DNA of 64,000 nucleotides from Escherichia phage RB49. Position 1 is the first letter of the stretch; every line of letters starts with the position of its first letter. The notes under the pieces were generated by a model, which did not search any database, was not told where the DNA came from, and saw nothing but the letters and a program-made list of their open reading frames with translations. The DNA lies in the sequence record NC_005066.1; one strand, written 5' to 3'. Of the stretch, positions 22,043 to 29,574 are shown one piece after another. A program made the position numbers and the translations under genes.

Positions 22043-22273
22043 TCACGTTCTAAAGTTTGTTGCAACCCCAGCATCAGGGTAATCAAGTTTATCAAAGTTG
22101 GGGACCAGCATAAACTCATGATGACGACAAGACAACATTTTTGTTATGTCTTCATCGCTGTATATGCTGTTTTTCATATCCCCCATACTAACTACATATT
22201 CTTCACCGGAATATAGATTGATTAAGGTATACAATTCTAACTCCGGCTGCGTTACTCTGTCAAATGTTAACAT
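22043..22273 (-). CDS. hypothetical protein
   Basis: 76 aa ORF between 46 and 45. Confidence 0.4.
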   Translation of the reverse strand: MLTFDRVTQPELELYTLINLYSGEEYVVSMGDMKNSIYSDEDITKMLSCRHHEFMLVPNFDKLDYPDAGVATNFRT

Positions 22274-23942
22274 TCATTTCAGTGAATCGCCCACGTTTAA
22301 CCATCTTGAGATGACGGCTAAAATCATCAGGGTTATGGTCACGATGGCTGATAATATACACGTTATCATCTAACTTGTCAATGATGGAATCAAGTGCTTT
22401 TACGCCCTGAACGTCCGTAGCCCCATCATAAATTTCGTCGAGTACCAACAAAGAAATATTAGTACCAGATACTTTACCAGCAACATCACGCCATGTAAAG
22501 AGCATCGCAAGGTCAATACGTGCTTTTTCGCCTTGACTGAATGATGTATACGAAAACGATTCACGCCCCCGTGATTTGATTGTTTCGTTAAACTCTTCAT
22601 CTAACGTAAAGATATAATCCGCTTCCATGATATCAAGATAATACGCAATCCGATCATTGAAATATGGAATATATTTCTTGACGATAGACGCCTTAACACC
22701 GGAATCCTTCAACATTTCTGTTACAAATCCACGGTGATATTTTTCAAGAACTAGCTTTGATTTTTCATTAGTAATCTCTACCAGTTCGTGTTCCAGTTTA
22801 GCAAGTTCTTCGGAATTGTCAACTCTTTCTTTTTGTAATTCCTGAATTGCTTTCTGGATCTGTTTAGCCCGACCTACAGATGCCGTTAAATTTGCTCTCT
22901 GTGACTCTATAGCGCGTTTAATTTCCAAGACCTTAGTTTGTGCTGTCTGGAAAGAATTGGCTTTCTCTGCGTATTCTACGCGTTTCTCGTCAATAAGAGA
23001 CAGTTTATGTTCGGCTTGTGCTTTTTGTTCGCGTACAGCCTGATCATTACCCTGAATGATCGGTTGTGTGCACGTAGGACAGATCCCGCCTTTCTCGTGC
23101 ATATGGATAACACGATCAAAGTTCTGGATCTGTGCACCAATCTGTGCGATAGCCGTATTGATTTTAGCCAATGCCGCGCTAGGATCTTCCGGCATAACAA
23201 CAGCCAATAGCTCATCGGTCAAGCGCGTTTCTTCGGCTTTAAATGCTTTAGCCGATTCTACCTCTTTATCATACATATTCTGTAAACGCTGGAGATTCTC
23301 GGCACTCGCCTTGCTAGCGTCTTCTATGTACTTTTTATGAGTGTTGATTTGTTGCTGAACGTGATTAGCTTTCATTTCCTGCATTTGGATATTCTGGGTA
23401 ATCTCGCGCACATACGCTTTATTCAGTTTATCCATTTCGCCTAGCGTAGCAATATCAAGCAAATCCTCAACCAGTTTACGGCGACCCGCTGCCGGAAGAC
23501 TCATAAACGGAACATAACCAGCAGTGCCTAAAACAACGATCTGTTTAAAGCTGGCTAGGTTCATGCCTATGATACCTTCAAAATATTCCTGAAAGTCTTT
23601 GGTGCTTGCGCTCTCGTCGATCTTTTGACCGTCGCGATGCACTTCGAATACTTCCGGTTTTTGACCACGTTTGATATAAAACTCTTTCCCGTCCAGTTCA
23701 AACCAGACTTCGACTAACAGTTTCTTTTTGTTGACGCTGTTAATCAATTGGCCTTTCTTGATACTACGAAACGGTTTACCGAACAACACAAAGCAAAGCG
23801 CCTCGATCATGGTCGATTTACCAGCACCGTTAACACCAGTGATTAGTGTCTTTTTGAATCCGTCTAGCTGAATCTCAACAGGTTCAGCACCCACGCTCAT
23901 TATATTTTGATAGCGCAAGGTTTTAAAATTTAACTTTGCCAT
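22260..23942 (-). CDS. 46: recombination nuclease ATPase subunit (Rad50/SbcC-like)
   Basis: 560 aa from ATG 23940-23942 (MAKLNF...); Walker A GVNGAGKST, long coiled coil with CPTC zinc hook, Walker B LLVLDE. Confidence 0.88.
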   Translation of the reverse strand: MAKLNFKTLRYQNIMSVGAEPVEIQLDGFKKTLITGVNGAGKSTMIEALCFVLFGKPFRSIKKGQLINSVNKKKLLVEVWFELDGKEFYIKRGQKPEVFEVHRDGQKIDESASTKDFQEYFEGIIGMNLASFKQIVVLGTAGYVPFMSLPAAGRRKLVEDLLDIATLGEMDKLNKAYVREITQNIQMQEMKANHVQQQINTHKKYIEDASKASAENLQRLQNMYDKEVESAKAFKAEETRLTDELLAVVMPEDPSAALAKINTAIAQIGAQIQNFDRVIHMHEKGGICPTCTQPIIQGNDQAVREQKAQAEHKLSLIDEKRVEYAEKANSFQTAQTKVLEIKRAIESQRANLTASVGRAKQIQKAIQELQKERVDNSEELAKLEHELVEITNEKSKLVLEKYHRGFVTEMLKDSGVKASIVKKYIPYFNDRIAYYLDIMEADYIFTLDEEFNETIKSRGRESFSYTSFSQGEKARIDLAMLFTWRDVAGKVSGTNISLLVLDEIYDGATDVQGVKALDSIIDKLDDNVYIISHRDHNPDDFSRHLKMVKRGRFTEMNVNI

Positions 23943-24186
23943 TAATCCACTCCGCAATCACACATTCCATAATATTAAATGCTAACACATCTTCATCAAT
24001 GTTGTAAACACTTGCCGCCTTCACTTTAACTAGTGTGTCTCTGCGATCTGGCAACATGATCACATAATCCAGTGTCGCCGGGTCATATGTCATAAAGGGA
24101 TCAACGTAAATCCCTTTATTCAATGCCAGATATTCGCGAAGACCTTCTATAACCCTGTGTCTAAGGTAGGTCATCGATAGAATCAT
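23923..24186 (-). CDS. hypothetical protein
   Basis: 87 aa ORF between 47 and 46. Confidence 0.45.
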   Translation of the reverse strand: MILSMTYLRHRVIEGLREYLALNKGIYVDPFMTYDPATLDYVIMLPDRRDTLVKVKAASVYNIDEDVLAFNIMECVIAEWINGKVKF

Positions 24187-24767
24187 TTTAGTTTATGTTC
24201 CTCTAAAAATTCTTCAATTTCACCTTGCAGGTCTTCCGCTTGTTGTTCCAGAATATCGCGAAATTCACCTACAGTCAAGCGGTAATCACACTTCACCAGT
24301 CGATGTGGGAGAATATACCCTTTATACATCGTCTCTGACGCTTCCAGGAATACCCCACTATGCATGACAGAGATCCAACCTGTTAGCGTCAATGGAGTAT
24401 TCGGAAAATAATATTTGCTGGATTGTTTCCACTGGACGAAAGCACCATATACAATCGGATTATATTCACCAACCACACTCTTAATAATGGATTCTACTTT
24501 GTCTTTTACAAAGTCGCCAATGTCCATAGTTATCATCAACTCTTTTGGATTAATGATTTTAAGGTAACGACGGTAGCCGTCATCATACCACATCTTAACA
24601 ACTGACCGATCAATATTCGCTTTCAGATAGCCATAGATCGGATTCTTGTAATATGATTGTTTTAGTGTGTATGTGTGCACCAATTTAATAAAATGTTCCA
24701 TTACCAACAAATCAGAATCAGCCGCGACCATAGTCGTATTCATAATATGTTCCTCGTTCAATCTCAT
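24183..24767 (-). CDS. hypothetical protein
   Basis: 194 aa ORF between 47 and 46; start uncertain. Confidence 0.45.
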   Translation of the reverse strand: MRLNEEHIMNTTMVAADSDLLVMEHFIKLVHTYTLKQSYYKNPIYGYLKANIDRSVVKMWYDDGYRRYLKIINPKELMITMDIGDFVKDKVESIIKSVVGEYNPIVYGAFVQWKQSSKYYFPNTPLTLTGWISVMHSGVFLEASETMYKGYILPHRLVKCDYRLTVGEFRDILEQQAEDLQGEIEEFLEEHKLK

Positions 24768-25035
24768 ATTGTTTCAGGTCTTCTAAAAGTTCATCCACTG
24801 CTTGTTTCAGCACATGACGCAGCGTAAAGTAATAGCTTTCATCAAATTCTATTTCCGCGCGAGGAATAGAGCGAAACTTACACTTAACGGTAGTATCAGT
24901 GAGTCGCTTTTCGACCATCATCCGAACTTCTTCATTCTCTTTGGAATACCATACATCAACGGAGATCCCCTTACGTCGAGCAAACATAGGCAATGCCGCA
25001 TTAAATTCCATTACCTTTTGTGCAATTGTTTTCAT
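24718..25035 (-). CDS. hypothetical protein
   Basis: 105 aa ORF between 47 and 46. Confidence 0.45.
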   Translation of the reverse strand: MKTIAQKVMEFNAALPMFARRKGISVDVWYSKENEEVRMMVEKRLTDTTVKCKFRSIPRAEIEFDESYYFTLRHVLKQAVDELLEDLKQYEIERGTYYEYDYGRG

Positions 25036-25295
25036 CGTACAGACCCCATAGATCCACGCGCAATAACATTCTGGGTAATATCAGCAACCTTATGGGATAC
25101 GATGTTTGTTAGCCCCTCTTTGGTGATATTTTCACGATCAAATGGGATTTCGTCATGAGTCCACAAACCATAGTTAGACCGAAATGATAGCATATACTGA
25201 CCATCTCGCACAACCTCAAATACATGGATCTTAGTGAATTTCGACAAACCTTCGTTGATTTCTTTCAGTGCATTAGTAATCATAACAACCTCCAA
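25032..25295 (-). CDS. hypothetical protein
   Basis: 87 aa ORF between 47 and 46. Confidence 0.45.
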   Translation of the reverse strand: MEVVMITNALKEINEGLSKFTKIHVFEVVRDGQYMLSFRSNYGLWTHDEIPFDRENITKEGLTNIVSHKVADITQNVIARGSMGSVR

Positions 25296-25338
25296 TCAAT
25301 TTTTTAGAGAGTATAACGGGGATTTCTCCCCGCGTCAA

Positions 25339-26364
25339 CTAACTTTTTGCGCTATTTACTTCGGCTAAAAGTTCATCAGAAATACGCTTAACTGCCGCAA
25401 GTTCTTCCGGTTCTAGGTTTTGTTCTTCCAGATATTCATAGACCATCTGAATGGTGCTTTTAACTTCAATAACACCTGTTTCCTGTGATGCGCTACTCTC
25501 CAGCTTATGGACCACTTTTAGCTTGTGCACAACGGCCTCTAACGCGCTTTCTAACTTAGTTAACCCATTATCAGCGACCGTTGTGATAAGACGCACACTA
25601 AGCCCCTTAAAGCGTTCTACGTCGATTTTATCATCTGACGGGTAAGTGATACGCACATGATAAGTTTTATCATTCTGGATAAACTCTTTTTTGTGTGTAT
25701 CGGTATCGAATACCCAAAAACCACGCGGATCGTTTTCGTCACCCGCCGTTAGTGTGTATGGTGTACCGATATACGTTACGTTACCGCCATCACTGATAGT
25801 ATGAAAGTGACCGGAAAACACTTCACGGTATTTCTTGAGGAAGTCCGCGCTATAACCTTCGGATTTTAGCCCTTTATAGAAATAGTAGCCAGACAATTCC
25901 CAATGGCCTACACAATATTCACTGAATGAGTTTTGAATAAACTCTAAAATCTCTGATTTATTGTCATCACAAAACCACGGGAACAGATCAAATGATACAC
26001 CATCAAAGGTAACTGTTTCCGGTTTATCAATGACCTTAATGCAATCATATTGGCTTAACACTTCACGCGGTGCGTTAGGCTGGATCTTGTTTCGTTTAAA
26101 CATATCATGATTTCCGACCGTGATATAACAAGTAATACCAGCCTCTTCCAGTAACGGGATAATTTTCGTTCTATTAAAACGCATAGTTGCATGTGTGATT
26201 GCTTTTCGGCAATCAAACCAGTCCCCTGTCTGAATCCATGCCTTAATATTATGTTTTTTTGAATAATCGACTGCCTTTTTAATAGTATCAAGAATATACT
26301 CATGTATCCACGGATCATCGTTGCCGATACCAGTATGCAGATCACCTAAAAGCAAAATTTTCAT
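25339..26364 (-). CDS. 47: recombination nuclease subunit (Mre11/SbcD-like phosphoesterase)
   Basis: 341 aa from ATG 26362-26364; motifs GDLH, GDWFD, GNHD, GHWE, GHFH. Confidence 0.88.
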   Translation of the reverse strand: MKILLLGDLHTGIGNDDPWIHEYILDTIKKAVDYSKKHNIKAWIQTGDWFDCRKAITHATMRFNRTKIIPLLEEAGITCYITVGNHDMFKRNKIQPNAPREVLSQYDCIKVIDKPETVTFDGVSFDLFPWFCDDNKSEILEFIQNSFSEYCVGHWELSGYYFYKGLKSEGYSADFLKKYREVFSGHFHTISDGGNVTYIGTPYTLTAGDENDPRGFWVFDTDTHKKEFIQNDKTYHVRITYPSDDKIDVERFKGLSVRLITTVADNGLTKLESALEAVVHKLKVVHKLESSASQETGVIEVKSTIQMVYEYLEEQNLEPEELAAVKRISDELLAEVNSAKS

Positions 26365-26379
26365 ATTATACATAATCTC

Positions 26380-26934
26380 CTAAAAATTTTTAACACCATA
26401 TTCACCAAAATAAAGATCAACCGCTTTGTCATAAGCTCTAGCCGCATCTTCTTCGTTGACATAATACCCAAGAGATATTAGTTTATCATTATTTCGTATT
26501 CTTGCAACCCATTTCTTCGTATGTTTATGCCAGCTAACTCCTTTATACTTGCTTGCTTTATTCTTGTACTTTCCAACGTTACAAGCATTTTTCTTTGCGT
26601 CGGACTCTCTAAGATTGCGCGGTGCGTTGTTTAAAGGATTTCGGTCTATATGATCTATAATTTCTGGTTGTGTTCCATGCTCAAGAAACCATACAACACG
26701 ATGTACATATGGCTTTAAAACCCTCCCATTATCCATAACGATTGCAATTTGGAGATGATCCTGACTTTTAAAAGTTTTTACTTTATCTCCTGCCTTATAA
26801 AACTTTCCTTCGTAATTCTTTCCTCCGGCTCGGCTATTCTTTAAATGATAAAGAATACCCTCATCGTCATGTCTATATCTTTCTCTTATAATTCGTTGCG
26901 TTTCTTCATCCCACAATTTGGAACGTCTACTCAT
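26380..26934 (-). CDS. HNH homing endonuclease with AP2 DNA-binding domain
   Basis: 184 aa; HNH core VHRVVW...HIDRNPLNN...NLR; AP2-like YKGVSWHKHTKKWVARI...LGYYVNEEDAARAYD. Confidence 0.75.
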   Translation of the reverse strand: MSRRSKLWDEETQRIIRERYRHDDEGILYHLKNSRAGGKNYEGKFYKAGDKVKTFKSQDHLQIAIVMDNGRVLKPYVHRVVWFLEHGTQPEIIDHIDRNPLNNAPRNLRESDAKKNACNVGKYKNKASKYKGVSWHKHTKKWVARIRNNDKLISLGYYVNEEDAARAYDKAVDLYFGEYGVKNF

Positions 26935-27024
26935 AGTCTCTTCCTCTCTTCGTTTTCGATGCTCTCACTATATCACAGAAAAATAAAAAGGGAAACCCCT
27001 TTCAGAGTCTCCCTTATAAAGCCA

Positions 27025-28104: not shown

Positions 28105-29574
28105 CTATTCCCCATTACCATTATACTTTCTTTGCTTAGTTATCCACACTCTAACCATCTCTACAGATTCACCGTCAGACGGATCAAGAGTTTTTCCTTT
28201 TTTCTTCATGCGGTACTTAAATCCGTTAAATCTTGCATTCTCTTGCTCGTTAAAGTCGAACATCTTTTTAAATGATTTTCGCCCTTTACGCTCACCGCAT
28301 TCTAGCGGAATCATTCGGTCTGTTATTACATTGGCATTAGGTAGAAACGTTTTTAGATAATCTACCAACGCCCAATCAGGAACATATAGATTAACATTCT
28401 CCTTGCTCTCGTTGTCTCTCAGGTTACAACGCAAACATAATTGAAATGCTGGTTCCAGATAATCAGACACATGACGCGCTTTCAAAAACTCGTTTGTCGG
28501 GAGATCACAACTATTAGCAAGACCTTTTAAAATATCAATCTCCCATCGTTGAGGGTTAAAGCTGAACATCACAGCAACATTTTTATGATGAATGTAAGAG
28601 TTAAGACCATAAGATCCGTAAGGTATCCGCTCACCAATACCATTTGTACACGCTTCACGGTCCCGATTCACGGTATAAATGAAGTCATCACCACATTCAT
28701 TTTTAACCATATCAACAAGACGTTCAAAGGTATTGTTTGTTTCTGACTGGTGACGCGACCATCGTTCGGAGTCCGTCATAAGGATGATGTTAACTCTATC
28801 TGTATTTTTATACTCTTTGAAATATAGTCTGGATTCTAGCGCACTCGGAACAAAATCGCAATTTGCATAGTATCGTAGATACTTCCCACTATATGTATCA
28901 AAGAGATTTGCACATGCTATCGTAACCTTTTTAAAGTCTCCCCACGTACCGTGTTTGTTATCGTTCAAGAAAACAATTTTCGACCCATTCTTCCGGTGTC
29001 CTTCGTTATGTTTTACCATAACGTTGATTTTCTTCTCTAATAACGCCTCATAAAGCCCTCTAAGAGAAGAATCGATCATATCAGTACCATCCTTTGCACT
29101 TTCTATCTTTTCTTTGATAGCGGCCTTCTCAGAGTCTTTTAGAACTAAGTTCTGTAGGCATTCCGATTCGTCGGCGATTGGTTCGCAATGCTTCGTGATA
29201 AGTTCAAGATTAGACTTAAACGGATACTCATTAAATTCAACCAGTTGAGGAACTTCATCAATGTAAAGAGCATATTCACCAAACATTTTTGAACGTTCCA
29301 TATTAGATAACGCTGTATGTGTAATGAATATCACATCAGCACCGTCTTTAACTGATTGCATTATCGACGCTTGCACTGTCTTAAGGCTTCTTAGTCTGGT
29401 GCTATCAATCAAGACAGCACGACCGCCCATTCTTTTAAACTTATTGTAAGATTGTTCACTTAAAACACGAGATGGCGAAGCAATAACCGCTTTTTCTTTT
29501 GTCTCTAGGACGTGGGAAAGTATAGCATCAGTTTTCCCCGCCGCTGGCAATGCGATTAATGTTTCAATCTTCAT
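28105..29574 (-). CDS. uncharacterised P-loop NTPase (helicase-like N-terminal domain, novel C-terminal domain)
   Basis: 489 aa; Walker A ALPAAGKT at residues 8-15, Walker B ALYIDEV; no T4 counterpart at this position. Confidence 0.6.
   Translation of the reverse strand: MKIETLIALPAAGKTDAILSHVLETKEKAVIASPSRVLSEQSYNKFKRMGGRAVLIDSTRLRSLKTVQASIMQSVKDGADVIFITHTALSNMERSKMFGEYALYIDEVPQLVEFNEYPFKSNLELITKHCEPIADESECLQNLVLKDSEKAAIKEKIESAKDGTDMIDSSLRGLYEALLEKKINVMVKHNEGHRKNGSKIVFLNDNKHGTWGDFKKVTIACANLFDTYSGKYLRYYANCDFVPSALESRLYFKEYKNTDRVNIILMTDSERWSRHQSETNNTFERLVDMVKNECGDDFIYTVNRDREACTNGIGERIPYGSYGLNSYIHHKNVAVMFSFNPQRWEIDILKGLANSCDLPTNEFLKARHVSDYLEPAFQLCLRCNLRDNESKENVNLYVPDWALVDYLKTFLPNANVITDRMIPLECGERKGRKSFKKMFDFNEQENARFNGFKYRMKKKGKTLDPSDGESVEMVRVWITKQRKYNGNGE

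Follow-up and report, generated by a model that had tools for sequence, protein, structure and literature searches.

We analyzed the junction between genes 47 and 46 of Escherichia phage RB49 (NC_005066.1) within a window of 64,000 nt, to which all coordinates refer as a whole unless a contig is named, and focused on the four open reading frames (ORFs), here called orfD, orfC, orfB, and orfA, that separate the two genes. This 1.4-kb interval is probably a genus-wide accessory cassette, made up of one promoter-early stem-loop (PeSL) element and four genuine ORFans lodged in a variable 47-46 slot. In the ORF listing, all genes around the junction lie on the minus strand, with a transcription order of a 184-aa HNH ORF, gene 47, orfD, orfC, orfB, orfA, and gene 46. 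The product of gene 47 was identified as a calcineurin-like metallophosphoesterase (Pfam Metallophos, E 2.5e-10; phrog_100, SbcD-like) and that of gene 46 as an SMC-type ATPase (AAA_23, E 1.9e-13; SMC_N, E 3.8e-10; phrog_77, SbcC-like) with 51% identity to gp46 of T4. By these domains, gp47 and gp46 are predicted to supply the metallophosphoesterase and SMC-like ATPase subunits of an Mre11-Rad50 complex.

The four ORFs were intact in 10 of 10 Krischvirus genomes compared. The mean pairwise ratio of nonsynonymous to synonymous substitution rates (dN/dS) across these 10 genomes was 0.17 for orfD, 0.16 for orfC, 0.25 for orfB, and 0.11 for orfA, next to 0.05 for gp47 and 0.03 for gp46. Because the ORFs are intact in all 10 genomes and their dN/dS lies between 0.11 and 0.25, orfA-D are real protein-coding genes under purifying selection and not chance ORFs. 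A first-pass annotation of the window had listed four ORFs here and recognized none of them, and on both counts our results agree: each ORF matched, end to end, a single PHROG family of unknown function (Table 1), and no match was found in Pfam or NCBIfam, where the searches returned sub-threshold noise alone (e.g., Herpes_UL46 and MORC2 chromo in Pfam).

Within the genus, orfA is the best conserved of the four ORFs, with 94-100% amino acid identity in 57 of 57 Krischvirus records. The orfB gene is sharply bipartite, with residues 1-90 having a dN of 0.107, a dN/dS of 0.34, and a 4-residue indel, and residues 91-190 a dN of 0.005 and a dN/dS of 0.04; the N-terminal half of the protein is thus variable, and the C-terminal half is nearly invariant and ends in an acidic helix. 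The window carries the 186-aa orfB allele lacking the 4-residue insertion, as does GEC-3S. The C-terminal tail of orfC, YxYDYGRG, is invariant. No hydrophobic segment of membrane-span length was found in any of the four products, and their charges are unremarkable.

Table 1. Coordinates of features at the 47-46 junction of phage RB49 and of the orfC/orfB overlap in related contigs
Feature	Sequence	Coordinates	Strand	Extent and basis
Gene 46 (Rad50/SbcC-like nuclease subunit)	Window	22260-23942	-	560 aa from annotated ATG; longest ORF 22260-23957
orfA, 87 aa, phrog_14972	Window	23923-24186	-	ORF listing and PHROG match
orfB, 186 aa, phrog_16328	Window	24183-24743	-	Annotated ATG 24743; 194 aa from first ATG 24767
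orfC, 105 aa, phrog_15856	Window	24718-25035	-	ORF listing and PHROG match
orfD, 83 aa, phrog_15867	Window	25032-25283	-	ATG 25283; 87 aa from TTG 25295
Putative PeSL-type element, filling the 47/orfD intergenic space	Window	25284-25338	-	Promoter match and conservation
Gene 47 (Mre11/SbcD-like nuclease subunit)	Window	25339-26364	-	341 aa from annotated ATG; longest ORF to 26373
570-bp insertion with HNH-AP2 gene	Window	26365-26934	-	Coding sequence 26380-26934 (184 aa); carrier versus non-carrier comparison
Terminator-like hairpin followed by T-run	Window	26988-27015	-	Downstream of a-gt.4, upstream of the gene 47 (here HNH) start
orfC/orfB overlap	Window	24718-24743	-	
orfC/orfB overlap	L030	5299-5324		
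orfC/orfB overlap	L022	1287-1312		
orfC/orfB overlap	L024	864-889		

Distribution of the cassette and content of the 47-46 slot

A megablast search of 22260-27000 against the phage collection returned 57 phage records, all of them RB49-like (genus Krischvirus, Straboviridae), with 90-99% identity. All 57 records covered at least 88% of the query, and coverage reached 100% only in JK32, MIZ4, and MIZ5, the 12% gap in the other 54 records being due to the missing HNH gene. Searches by tblastn with orfB and with orfA retrieved the same 57 records and none besides at E < 0.01. The same four hypothetical genes lie between 46 and 47 in the annotated records, including phi1, JK32, GEC-3S, and six others, with ORF035 to ORF038 as the phi1 equivalents. 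Because all 57 records and diverged metagenomic relatives carry the cassette at the same place, it is fixed in Krischvirus and ancestral to the genus.

In searches of 5.8 billion and 1.84 billion proteins, matches were confined to Krischvirus clusters and two or three rare relatives. A HMMER search of the 1.84 billion representative proteins with the orfB profile gave two real outliers, P0007 (176 aa, 37% identical to orfB) and P0008 (99 aa, comprising the orfB C-terminal domain alone), and word-indexed searches of the 5.8 billion proteins with profiles of orfB and orfC yielded one more cluster, P0014, an intermediate form of orfC. The orfC profile retrieved nothing beyond close Krischvirus relatives from viral contigs and metagenome contigs. 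Matches of the orfB N-domain to the giant repeat proteins P0009 and P0010 (E 1e-14 and 5e-10) were a repeat-summing artefact, discarded because no single domain rose above the threshold in a local re-run.

The gene layouts of three diverged contigs were compared with the window, with all percentages given as identity to the window proteins. Contig L022 has gp47 (88%), an 84-aa ORF in which no similarity to orfD could be detected, orfC (49%), orfB (37%), and gp46 (88%), with orfA absent. Contig L024 has gp47 (81%), a 94-aa ORF, orfC (45%), an 86-aa ORF, a 99-aa ORF corresponding to the orfB C-domain (46%), and an orfA-like ORF (24%, E 1e-5), so that orfB is split here into the 86-aa and 99-aa ORFs (864-1413). 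Contig L030 keeps the four-gene layout as a mosaic, with gp47 at 92%, orfD at 77%, orfC at 82%, the orfB N-domain at 71%, the orfB C-domain at 100%, orfA at 94%, and gp46 at 98%. Both orfD and the orfB N-domain were undetectable in L022 and L024. The cassette diverges several-fold faster than the flanking genes, with identities in L022 and L024 of 24-49% or none detectable versus 81-88% for the flanks (up to 92% for gp47 in L030). From these three layouts, the cassette predates the sampled genus and its gene content is not rigid; either two modules were fused in orfB, or they were separated in the L024 pair.

The first-pass annotation had read the interval as an accessory insertion into a conserved operon. 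Taken as a recent event specific to the RB49 genome, into an operon of normally adjacent genes, an insertion would agree with the lack of orfA-D homologues outside the RB49-like lineage and with the mobile HNH gene next door. The distribution already refutes it and leaves it next to no probability, as the cassette is present in 57 of 57 Krischvirus genomes and in diverged relatives with flanks that are 81-92% identical. Further, other ORFs separate genes 46 and 47 in T4 as well, the cassette does not differ in GC content (0.35-0.42) from the neighboring genes, and the HNH gene is a separate, precisely delimited event seen in 3 of 57 genomes. What survives of the earlier claim is that the cassette is accessory and lineage-specific, with no homologue in T4 or other sampled genera; it is neither peculiar to RB49 nor recent.

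The 47-46 junction is a small variable slot throughout T4-like phages. The T4 record has 46.2 (87 aa) and 46.1 (68 aa, DUF5487) between 47 and 46, with 4- and 20-nt overlaps, which corrects the statement in the first-pass annotation that the two genes are adjacent in T4; nor is adjacency the general state, since unrelated small ORFs fill the slot in most T4-like lineages. We picked 14 lineages beyond T4 by gp47 tblastn and read their annotations, giving 15 lineages in total. The slot is empty in Enterobacter phage SonariX, Klebsiella phage Roth51, Angelvirus AsFcp_4, and Kuttervirus (phage barely). One ORF was identified in Slopekvirus K41P2, Klebsiella phage phi1_146002, Gaprivervirus VR7 (46.2), Kanagawavirus PEi20, Schizotequatrovirus VH7D, Ceceduovirus AP1, and cyanophage P-SSM4, and two ORFs in T4, Mosigvirus phiC120, and Lazarusvirus DLP2. 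Four ORFs, the largest load found, occur in Krischvirus only. The occupants fall into at least 10 unrelated families across the 15 lineages, with 46.2-like ORFs in four Tevenvirinae genera, 46.1-like ORFs in T4 and Mosigvirus, phrog_7762 in the slot of Slopekvirus and phi1_146002, and singletons elsewhere. No blastp or profile-profile link was found between any slot occupant from other genera and the Krischvirus ORFs, and their PHROG families differ; the best hhalign probability between slot families was 15%, and 46.1 or 46.2 against the Krischvirus ORFs gave 1% or less. According to the first-pass annotation, homologous ORFs at this junction in related phages, T4 included, would make the interval ancestral; the outcome was split, in that homologues are carried by Krischvirus-like phages alone, and the T4 ORFs at the same place are not homologous.

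We consider it very improbable that the cassette is a diverged equivalent of T4 46.1/46.2, that is, slot content ancestral to T4-like phages that has drifted past sequence recognition. Small (50-100 aa), tightly overlapping ORFs are kept in the slot by T4, Mosigvirus, Gaprivervirus, Kanagawavirus, cyanophages, and others, T4 46.2 and orfA are both 87 aa long, and orfD and the orfB N-domain do escape detection between phages that retain 81-88% identity in gp47. Set against these resemblances, in addition to the blastp and hhalign results above, are PHROG families that differ, the Pfam model DUF5487 (the 46.1 family), which matches none of orfA-D at E up to 1, the absence of any T4 protein from the top 50 BFVD structural matches of orfC, and the empty slot in some lineages. 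A literature search on the function of T4 46.1/46.2 gave nothing useful.

Three observations were made on other genes of these modules. In the Acinetobacter phage DLP2 (Lazarusvirus; L005, 5768-6379), the slot contains a 203-aa metallophosphoesterase (phrog_547), a second phosphoesterase beside the Mre11-like one. In Aeromonas phage AP1 (L014, 4783-5616), gene 46 is annotated at only 277 aa, followed by opposite-strand genes, and may be split, interrupted, or mis-assembled. Further, a 489-aa ORF between 55 and 55.2 in the window (28105-29574, minus strand), with a weak DEAD-box helicase match in a relative, is 69% identical to its L030 counterpart versus 97% for the adjacent gp55, and is a further example of a fast-evolving or mosaic gene in the module.

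Expression signals of the cassette

The 55 nt from the stop codon of gene 47 to the ATG of orfD read TTGACG-CGGGGAGAAATCCCCGT-TATACT, followed by 26 nt including GGAGG and then the ATG. The -35 box TTGACG (25338-25333) begins one base past the gene 47 TAG, the stem-loop CGGGGAGAAATCCCCG (25332-25317; CGGGGA-gaaa-TCCCCG) lies in the 17-nt spacer, the -10 box TATACT occupies 25315-25310, and the Shine-Dalgarno sequence GGAGG (25293-25289) stands 5 nt ahead of the orfD ATG. The -35/-10 pair matches 10 of 12 sigma-70 positions. The element is labelled as a promoter in the GEC-3S record and is kept in 10 of 10 Krischvirus genomes as well as in L022 and L024. The L022 version reads TTGACA...GGGGGAtagtTCCCCC...TATAAT, also with 17-nt spacing, and its GGGGGA-tagt-TCCCCC stem survives change on both arms.

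PeSLs have been described for RB49/phi1, usually before ORFans, with a few inside the replication module (Arbiol et al. 2010, PMC2839356), and promoter and terminator assays were positive for other PeSLs (PMC2839356). Judged by its promoter motif, stem-loop, and placement, the 47/orfD element is of PeSL design. Three further elements of the same design were observed on the minus strand of the window (33335-33307, 43031-43003, and 58416-58388), each with TTGAC[AG], a GGGG...CCCC hairpin in the spacer, TATACT or TACAAT, a Shine-Dalgarno sequence, and an ATG.

The genes following the element overlap by 4 nt (orfD/orfC), 26 nt (orfC/orfB), 4 nt (orfB/orfA), and 20 nt (orfA/46), leaving no intergenic space, and the Shine-Dalgarno sequence of each overlapping gene sits inside the preceding gene. 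No T4-type late promoter (TATAAATA) was found in the region. The hairpin ahead of gene 47 (here ahead of the HNH gene) is labelled as a terminator in the GEC-3S and G2248 records. Because a PeSL stands before orfD and overlaps run from orfD to 46, we infer that orfD-orfC-orfB-orfA-46 form a single early operon with partial insulation from gene 47.

The orfC/orfB overlap, 26 nt of dual-coding sequence (TATGAATAYGACTATGG...), persists even in lineages with no more than 37-49% protein identity (coordinates in Table 1). What is under constraint could be the YxYDYGRG peptide, the start of orfB, or translational coupling. Programmed frameshifting at this overlap was set aside: orfB has its own Shine-Dalgarno sequence and ATG, and orfB itself occurs as separate ORFs in L024. 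At the other end of the cassette, L022 has no orfA, and its gene 46 follows a 53-nt spacer (1817-1870) that contains the inverted repeat ATCCCC...GGGGAT.

The HNH-AP2 gene upstream of gene 47

An HNH endonuclease gene directly upstream of 47, as the first-pass annotation had reported, was borne out by the Pfam matches of the 184-aa ORF to HNH_3 (E 7e-12) and AP2 (E 2.4e-10). We compared carriers, namely the window and JK32, with eight non-carriers. The insertion lies exactly at the gene 47 start, with an intergenic distance of 660 nt in carriers and 90-91 nt in non-carriers. The ATG and ribosome-binding site originally used by gene 47 now serve the HNH ORF, whose end, TAGGAGATTATGTATAAT, gives gene 47 a new Shine-Dalgarno sequence (TAGGAG...). 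Among the 57 database genomes, copies with at least 95% identity were identified only in JK32, MIZ4, and MIZ5.

The carriers also share a private haplotype of gene 47. Over its first 240 nt (26364-26125), the carriers differ from each other by 2 nt, versus 37-46 nt from seven of the eight non-carriers, and the difference fades after about nt 240. The eighth non-carrier, phi1, is mosaic, with 18 nt of difference over the first 240, mainly in the first 120 nt, and carrier sequence thereafter. Such a pattern would be expected from a homing endonuclease with its target in the neighboring gene, and it points to either target-site immunity or a co-conversion tract. The recent mobile insertion near the junction is the HNH gene and not the four ORFs.

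HNH paralogues with about 50% identity occur elsewhere in Krischvirus genomes. HNH-AP2 paralogues (about 47%) were also identified in Slopekvirus-like Klebsiella phages, on the opposite strand and overlapping the 3' end of gene 46 (L007, 7477-8202; L008, 7454-8164). Because paralogues are also found at 46 in these phages, the 46/47 genes attract this HNH-AP2 family in more than one genus. The gene resembles free-standing HNH/AP2 homing endonuclease genes of T4-like phages in having both domains, a sporadic distribution, a precise site by a conserved gene, and a carrier haplotype; unlike those genes, this predicted homing endonuclease gene takes over the start signals of gene 47.

Function of the cassette and comparison with known systems

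We searched for structural relatives of the cassette proteins with profiles and models. The orfB and orfC profiles found nothing in the PDB below E 0.09, and the profile search of the 194-aa protein (orfB from its first ATG) that the first-pass annotation had proposed led to no known family. An orfC model built from five sequences (mean predicted local distance difference test score [pLDDT] 85.6, predicted template modelling score 0.74) shows an antiparallel sheet of three strands together with two short helices and a long helix at the C-terminus, with the YxYDYGRG tail disordered; Foldseek searches of the model against the PDB and BFVD gave nothing at E < 0.01. The type III secretion class I chaperone/YbjN-like fold, an alpha-beta-beta-beta-alpha-beta-beta-alpha sandwich containing a five-stranded sheet, was considered as a candidate for orfC. 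The model is read only as that of a small alpha+beta protein, adaptor- or chaperone-like, of a kind that usually binds proteins.

In the explanation that we favor, the stem-loop would attenuate transcription leaving gene 47, and host RNA polymerase would re-initiate at the PeSL promoter early in infection, yielding a single mRNA for orfD, orfC, orfB, orfA, and gene 46. Ribosomes would be handed from gene to gene via the overlapping stop and start codons. The products would be small soluble proteins without a catalytic motif, most likely binding partner proteins, with orfC taking a small alpha+beta adaptor/chaperone-like fold and orfB combining a constant C-domain with a fast-changing N-domain. 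Our best guess is that the four are non-enzymatic early binding proteins serving host adaptation, and orfA-D would most likely be dispensable genes of that kind, not obligate parts of the nuclease.

Several points weigh against this account. The promoter and attenuator activity of the 47/orfD element is put forward at the level of motifs. Arbiol et al. (PMC2839356) describe g46 as without flanking PeSLs, and the presence of the 47/orfD element in their list could not be confirmed. A second flanking PeSL was sought, and none was found between orfA and 46; because there is no second, 3' PeSL and orfA overlaps 46, the published PeSL-PeSL excision would be impossible for this cassette. The AlphaFold2 model of orfB, from a 5-sequence alignment, had a pLDDT of 39.9 and was unusable. 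Lastly, a functional link to the nuclease is just as consistent with the fixed position, the coupling to 46, and the near-invariant orfB C-domain.

Such a link would make orfA-D partners dedicated to the gp46/gp47 nuclease in an accessory or regulatory role, e.g., adaptors or assembly chaperones, that might govern the timing of the complex or its choice of DNA; this might be relevant to a phage such as RB49, which has ordinary cytosine DNA. The cassette stands between both subunit genes in every Krischvirus and in the diverged relatives, is translationally coupled into gene 46 through the overlap, and contains an orfB C-domain as constrained as the nuclease genes and fully identical in L030; orfC resembles small partner-binding chaperones, and other lineages too keep small ORFs in the slot. 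We nevertheless hold this unlikely: several T4-like lineages lack any such protein, their genes 46 and 47 being direct neighbors, the slot occupants of different genera are unrelated, and the cassette diverges several-fold faster than gp46/gp47 and loses or splits genes, which would be unusual for obligate partners. Because of the empty slots in several lineages and the fast evolution of the cassette, dedicated nuclease partners are less likely than host-adaptation proteins.

A broader idea, speculative and in our estimate quite improbable, is that T4-like phages in general use the slot as a favored docking site for fast-evolving proteins acting at DNA ends, with the phage Mre11-Rad50 or in its defense. 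The invariant C-domain of orfB would bind the phage complex, its hypervariable N-domain would act on a host target that changes, e.g., a defense or repair nuclease, and orfC would be a small adaptor. If so, the cassette would represent a new class of nuclease-associated counter-defense factors, and if any of the four proteins acted on or with the phage Mre11-Rad50, it would offer a handle on how the phage regulates its nuclease.

The results add some detail to an established picture: even the conserved replication/recombination module of T4-like phages contains micro-slots that unrelated small genes enter and leave, and in Krischvirus a PeSL element heads one of them. The arrangement is already known, being present in dozens of annotated genomes, and fits the published model of ORFan carriage. 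As found, it matters little: every RB49-like genome published so far has it, and in T4 the same position is occupied by other small genes. What remains of interest is that orfB is bipartite, that the dual-coding overlap of orfC and orfB is conserved, and that the cassette diverges fast compared with its flanks.

We compared the cassette with known systems. Its closest counterpart is the set ORF035-ORF038 of phi1, with orthologues in RB49, JSE, GEC-3S, and other Krischvirus, which have the same order and position and 85-100% amino acid identity and are all hypothetical; nothing substantial separates them from the genes described here, the window having the 186-aa orfB allele and the rare HNH gene upstream of 47. 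T4 46.1 (DUF5487, phrog_2327) and 46.2 (phrog_2192) are, like the cassette genes, small same-strand ORFs of unknown function that lie between 47 and 46 and overlap their neighbors. In contrast, T4 has two ORFs in the slot and Krischvirus four, and T4 gene 47 overlaps 46.2 directly, without the intergenic promoter/stem-loop element that Krischvirus has.

In lambdoid phages, morons are additional genes that bring a promoter of their own and sit between conserved genes. The cassette is similar in adding genes with a putative promoter of their own between conserved genes, whereas it has no 3' terminator of its own and would read into the next core gene, and it is fixed across a whole genus where lambdoid morons are sporadic. 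PeSLs themselves, which have been contrasted with lambdoid morons (PMC2839356), agree with the 47/orfD element in the sigma-70-like -35/-10 pair, the GGGG...CCCC stem-loop between the boxes, the extent from an upstream stop codon to a Shine-Dalgarno sequence and ATG, and the ORFans behind. Unlike a typical PeSL, the 47/orfD element heads four ORFans plus a core gene and not a single ORFan, and it lies in the replication module and not in a hyperplastic region. Unlike published PeSL cassettes, it has no partner PeSL 3' of orfA, and excision as a mini-circle is not expected.

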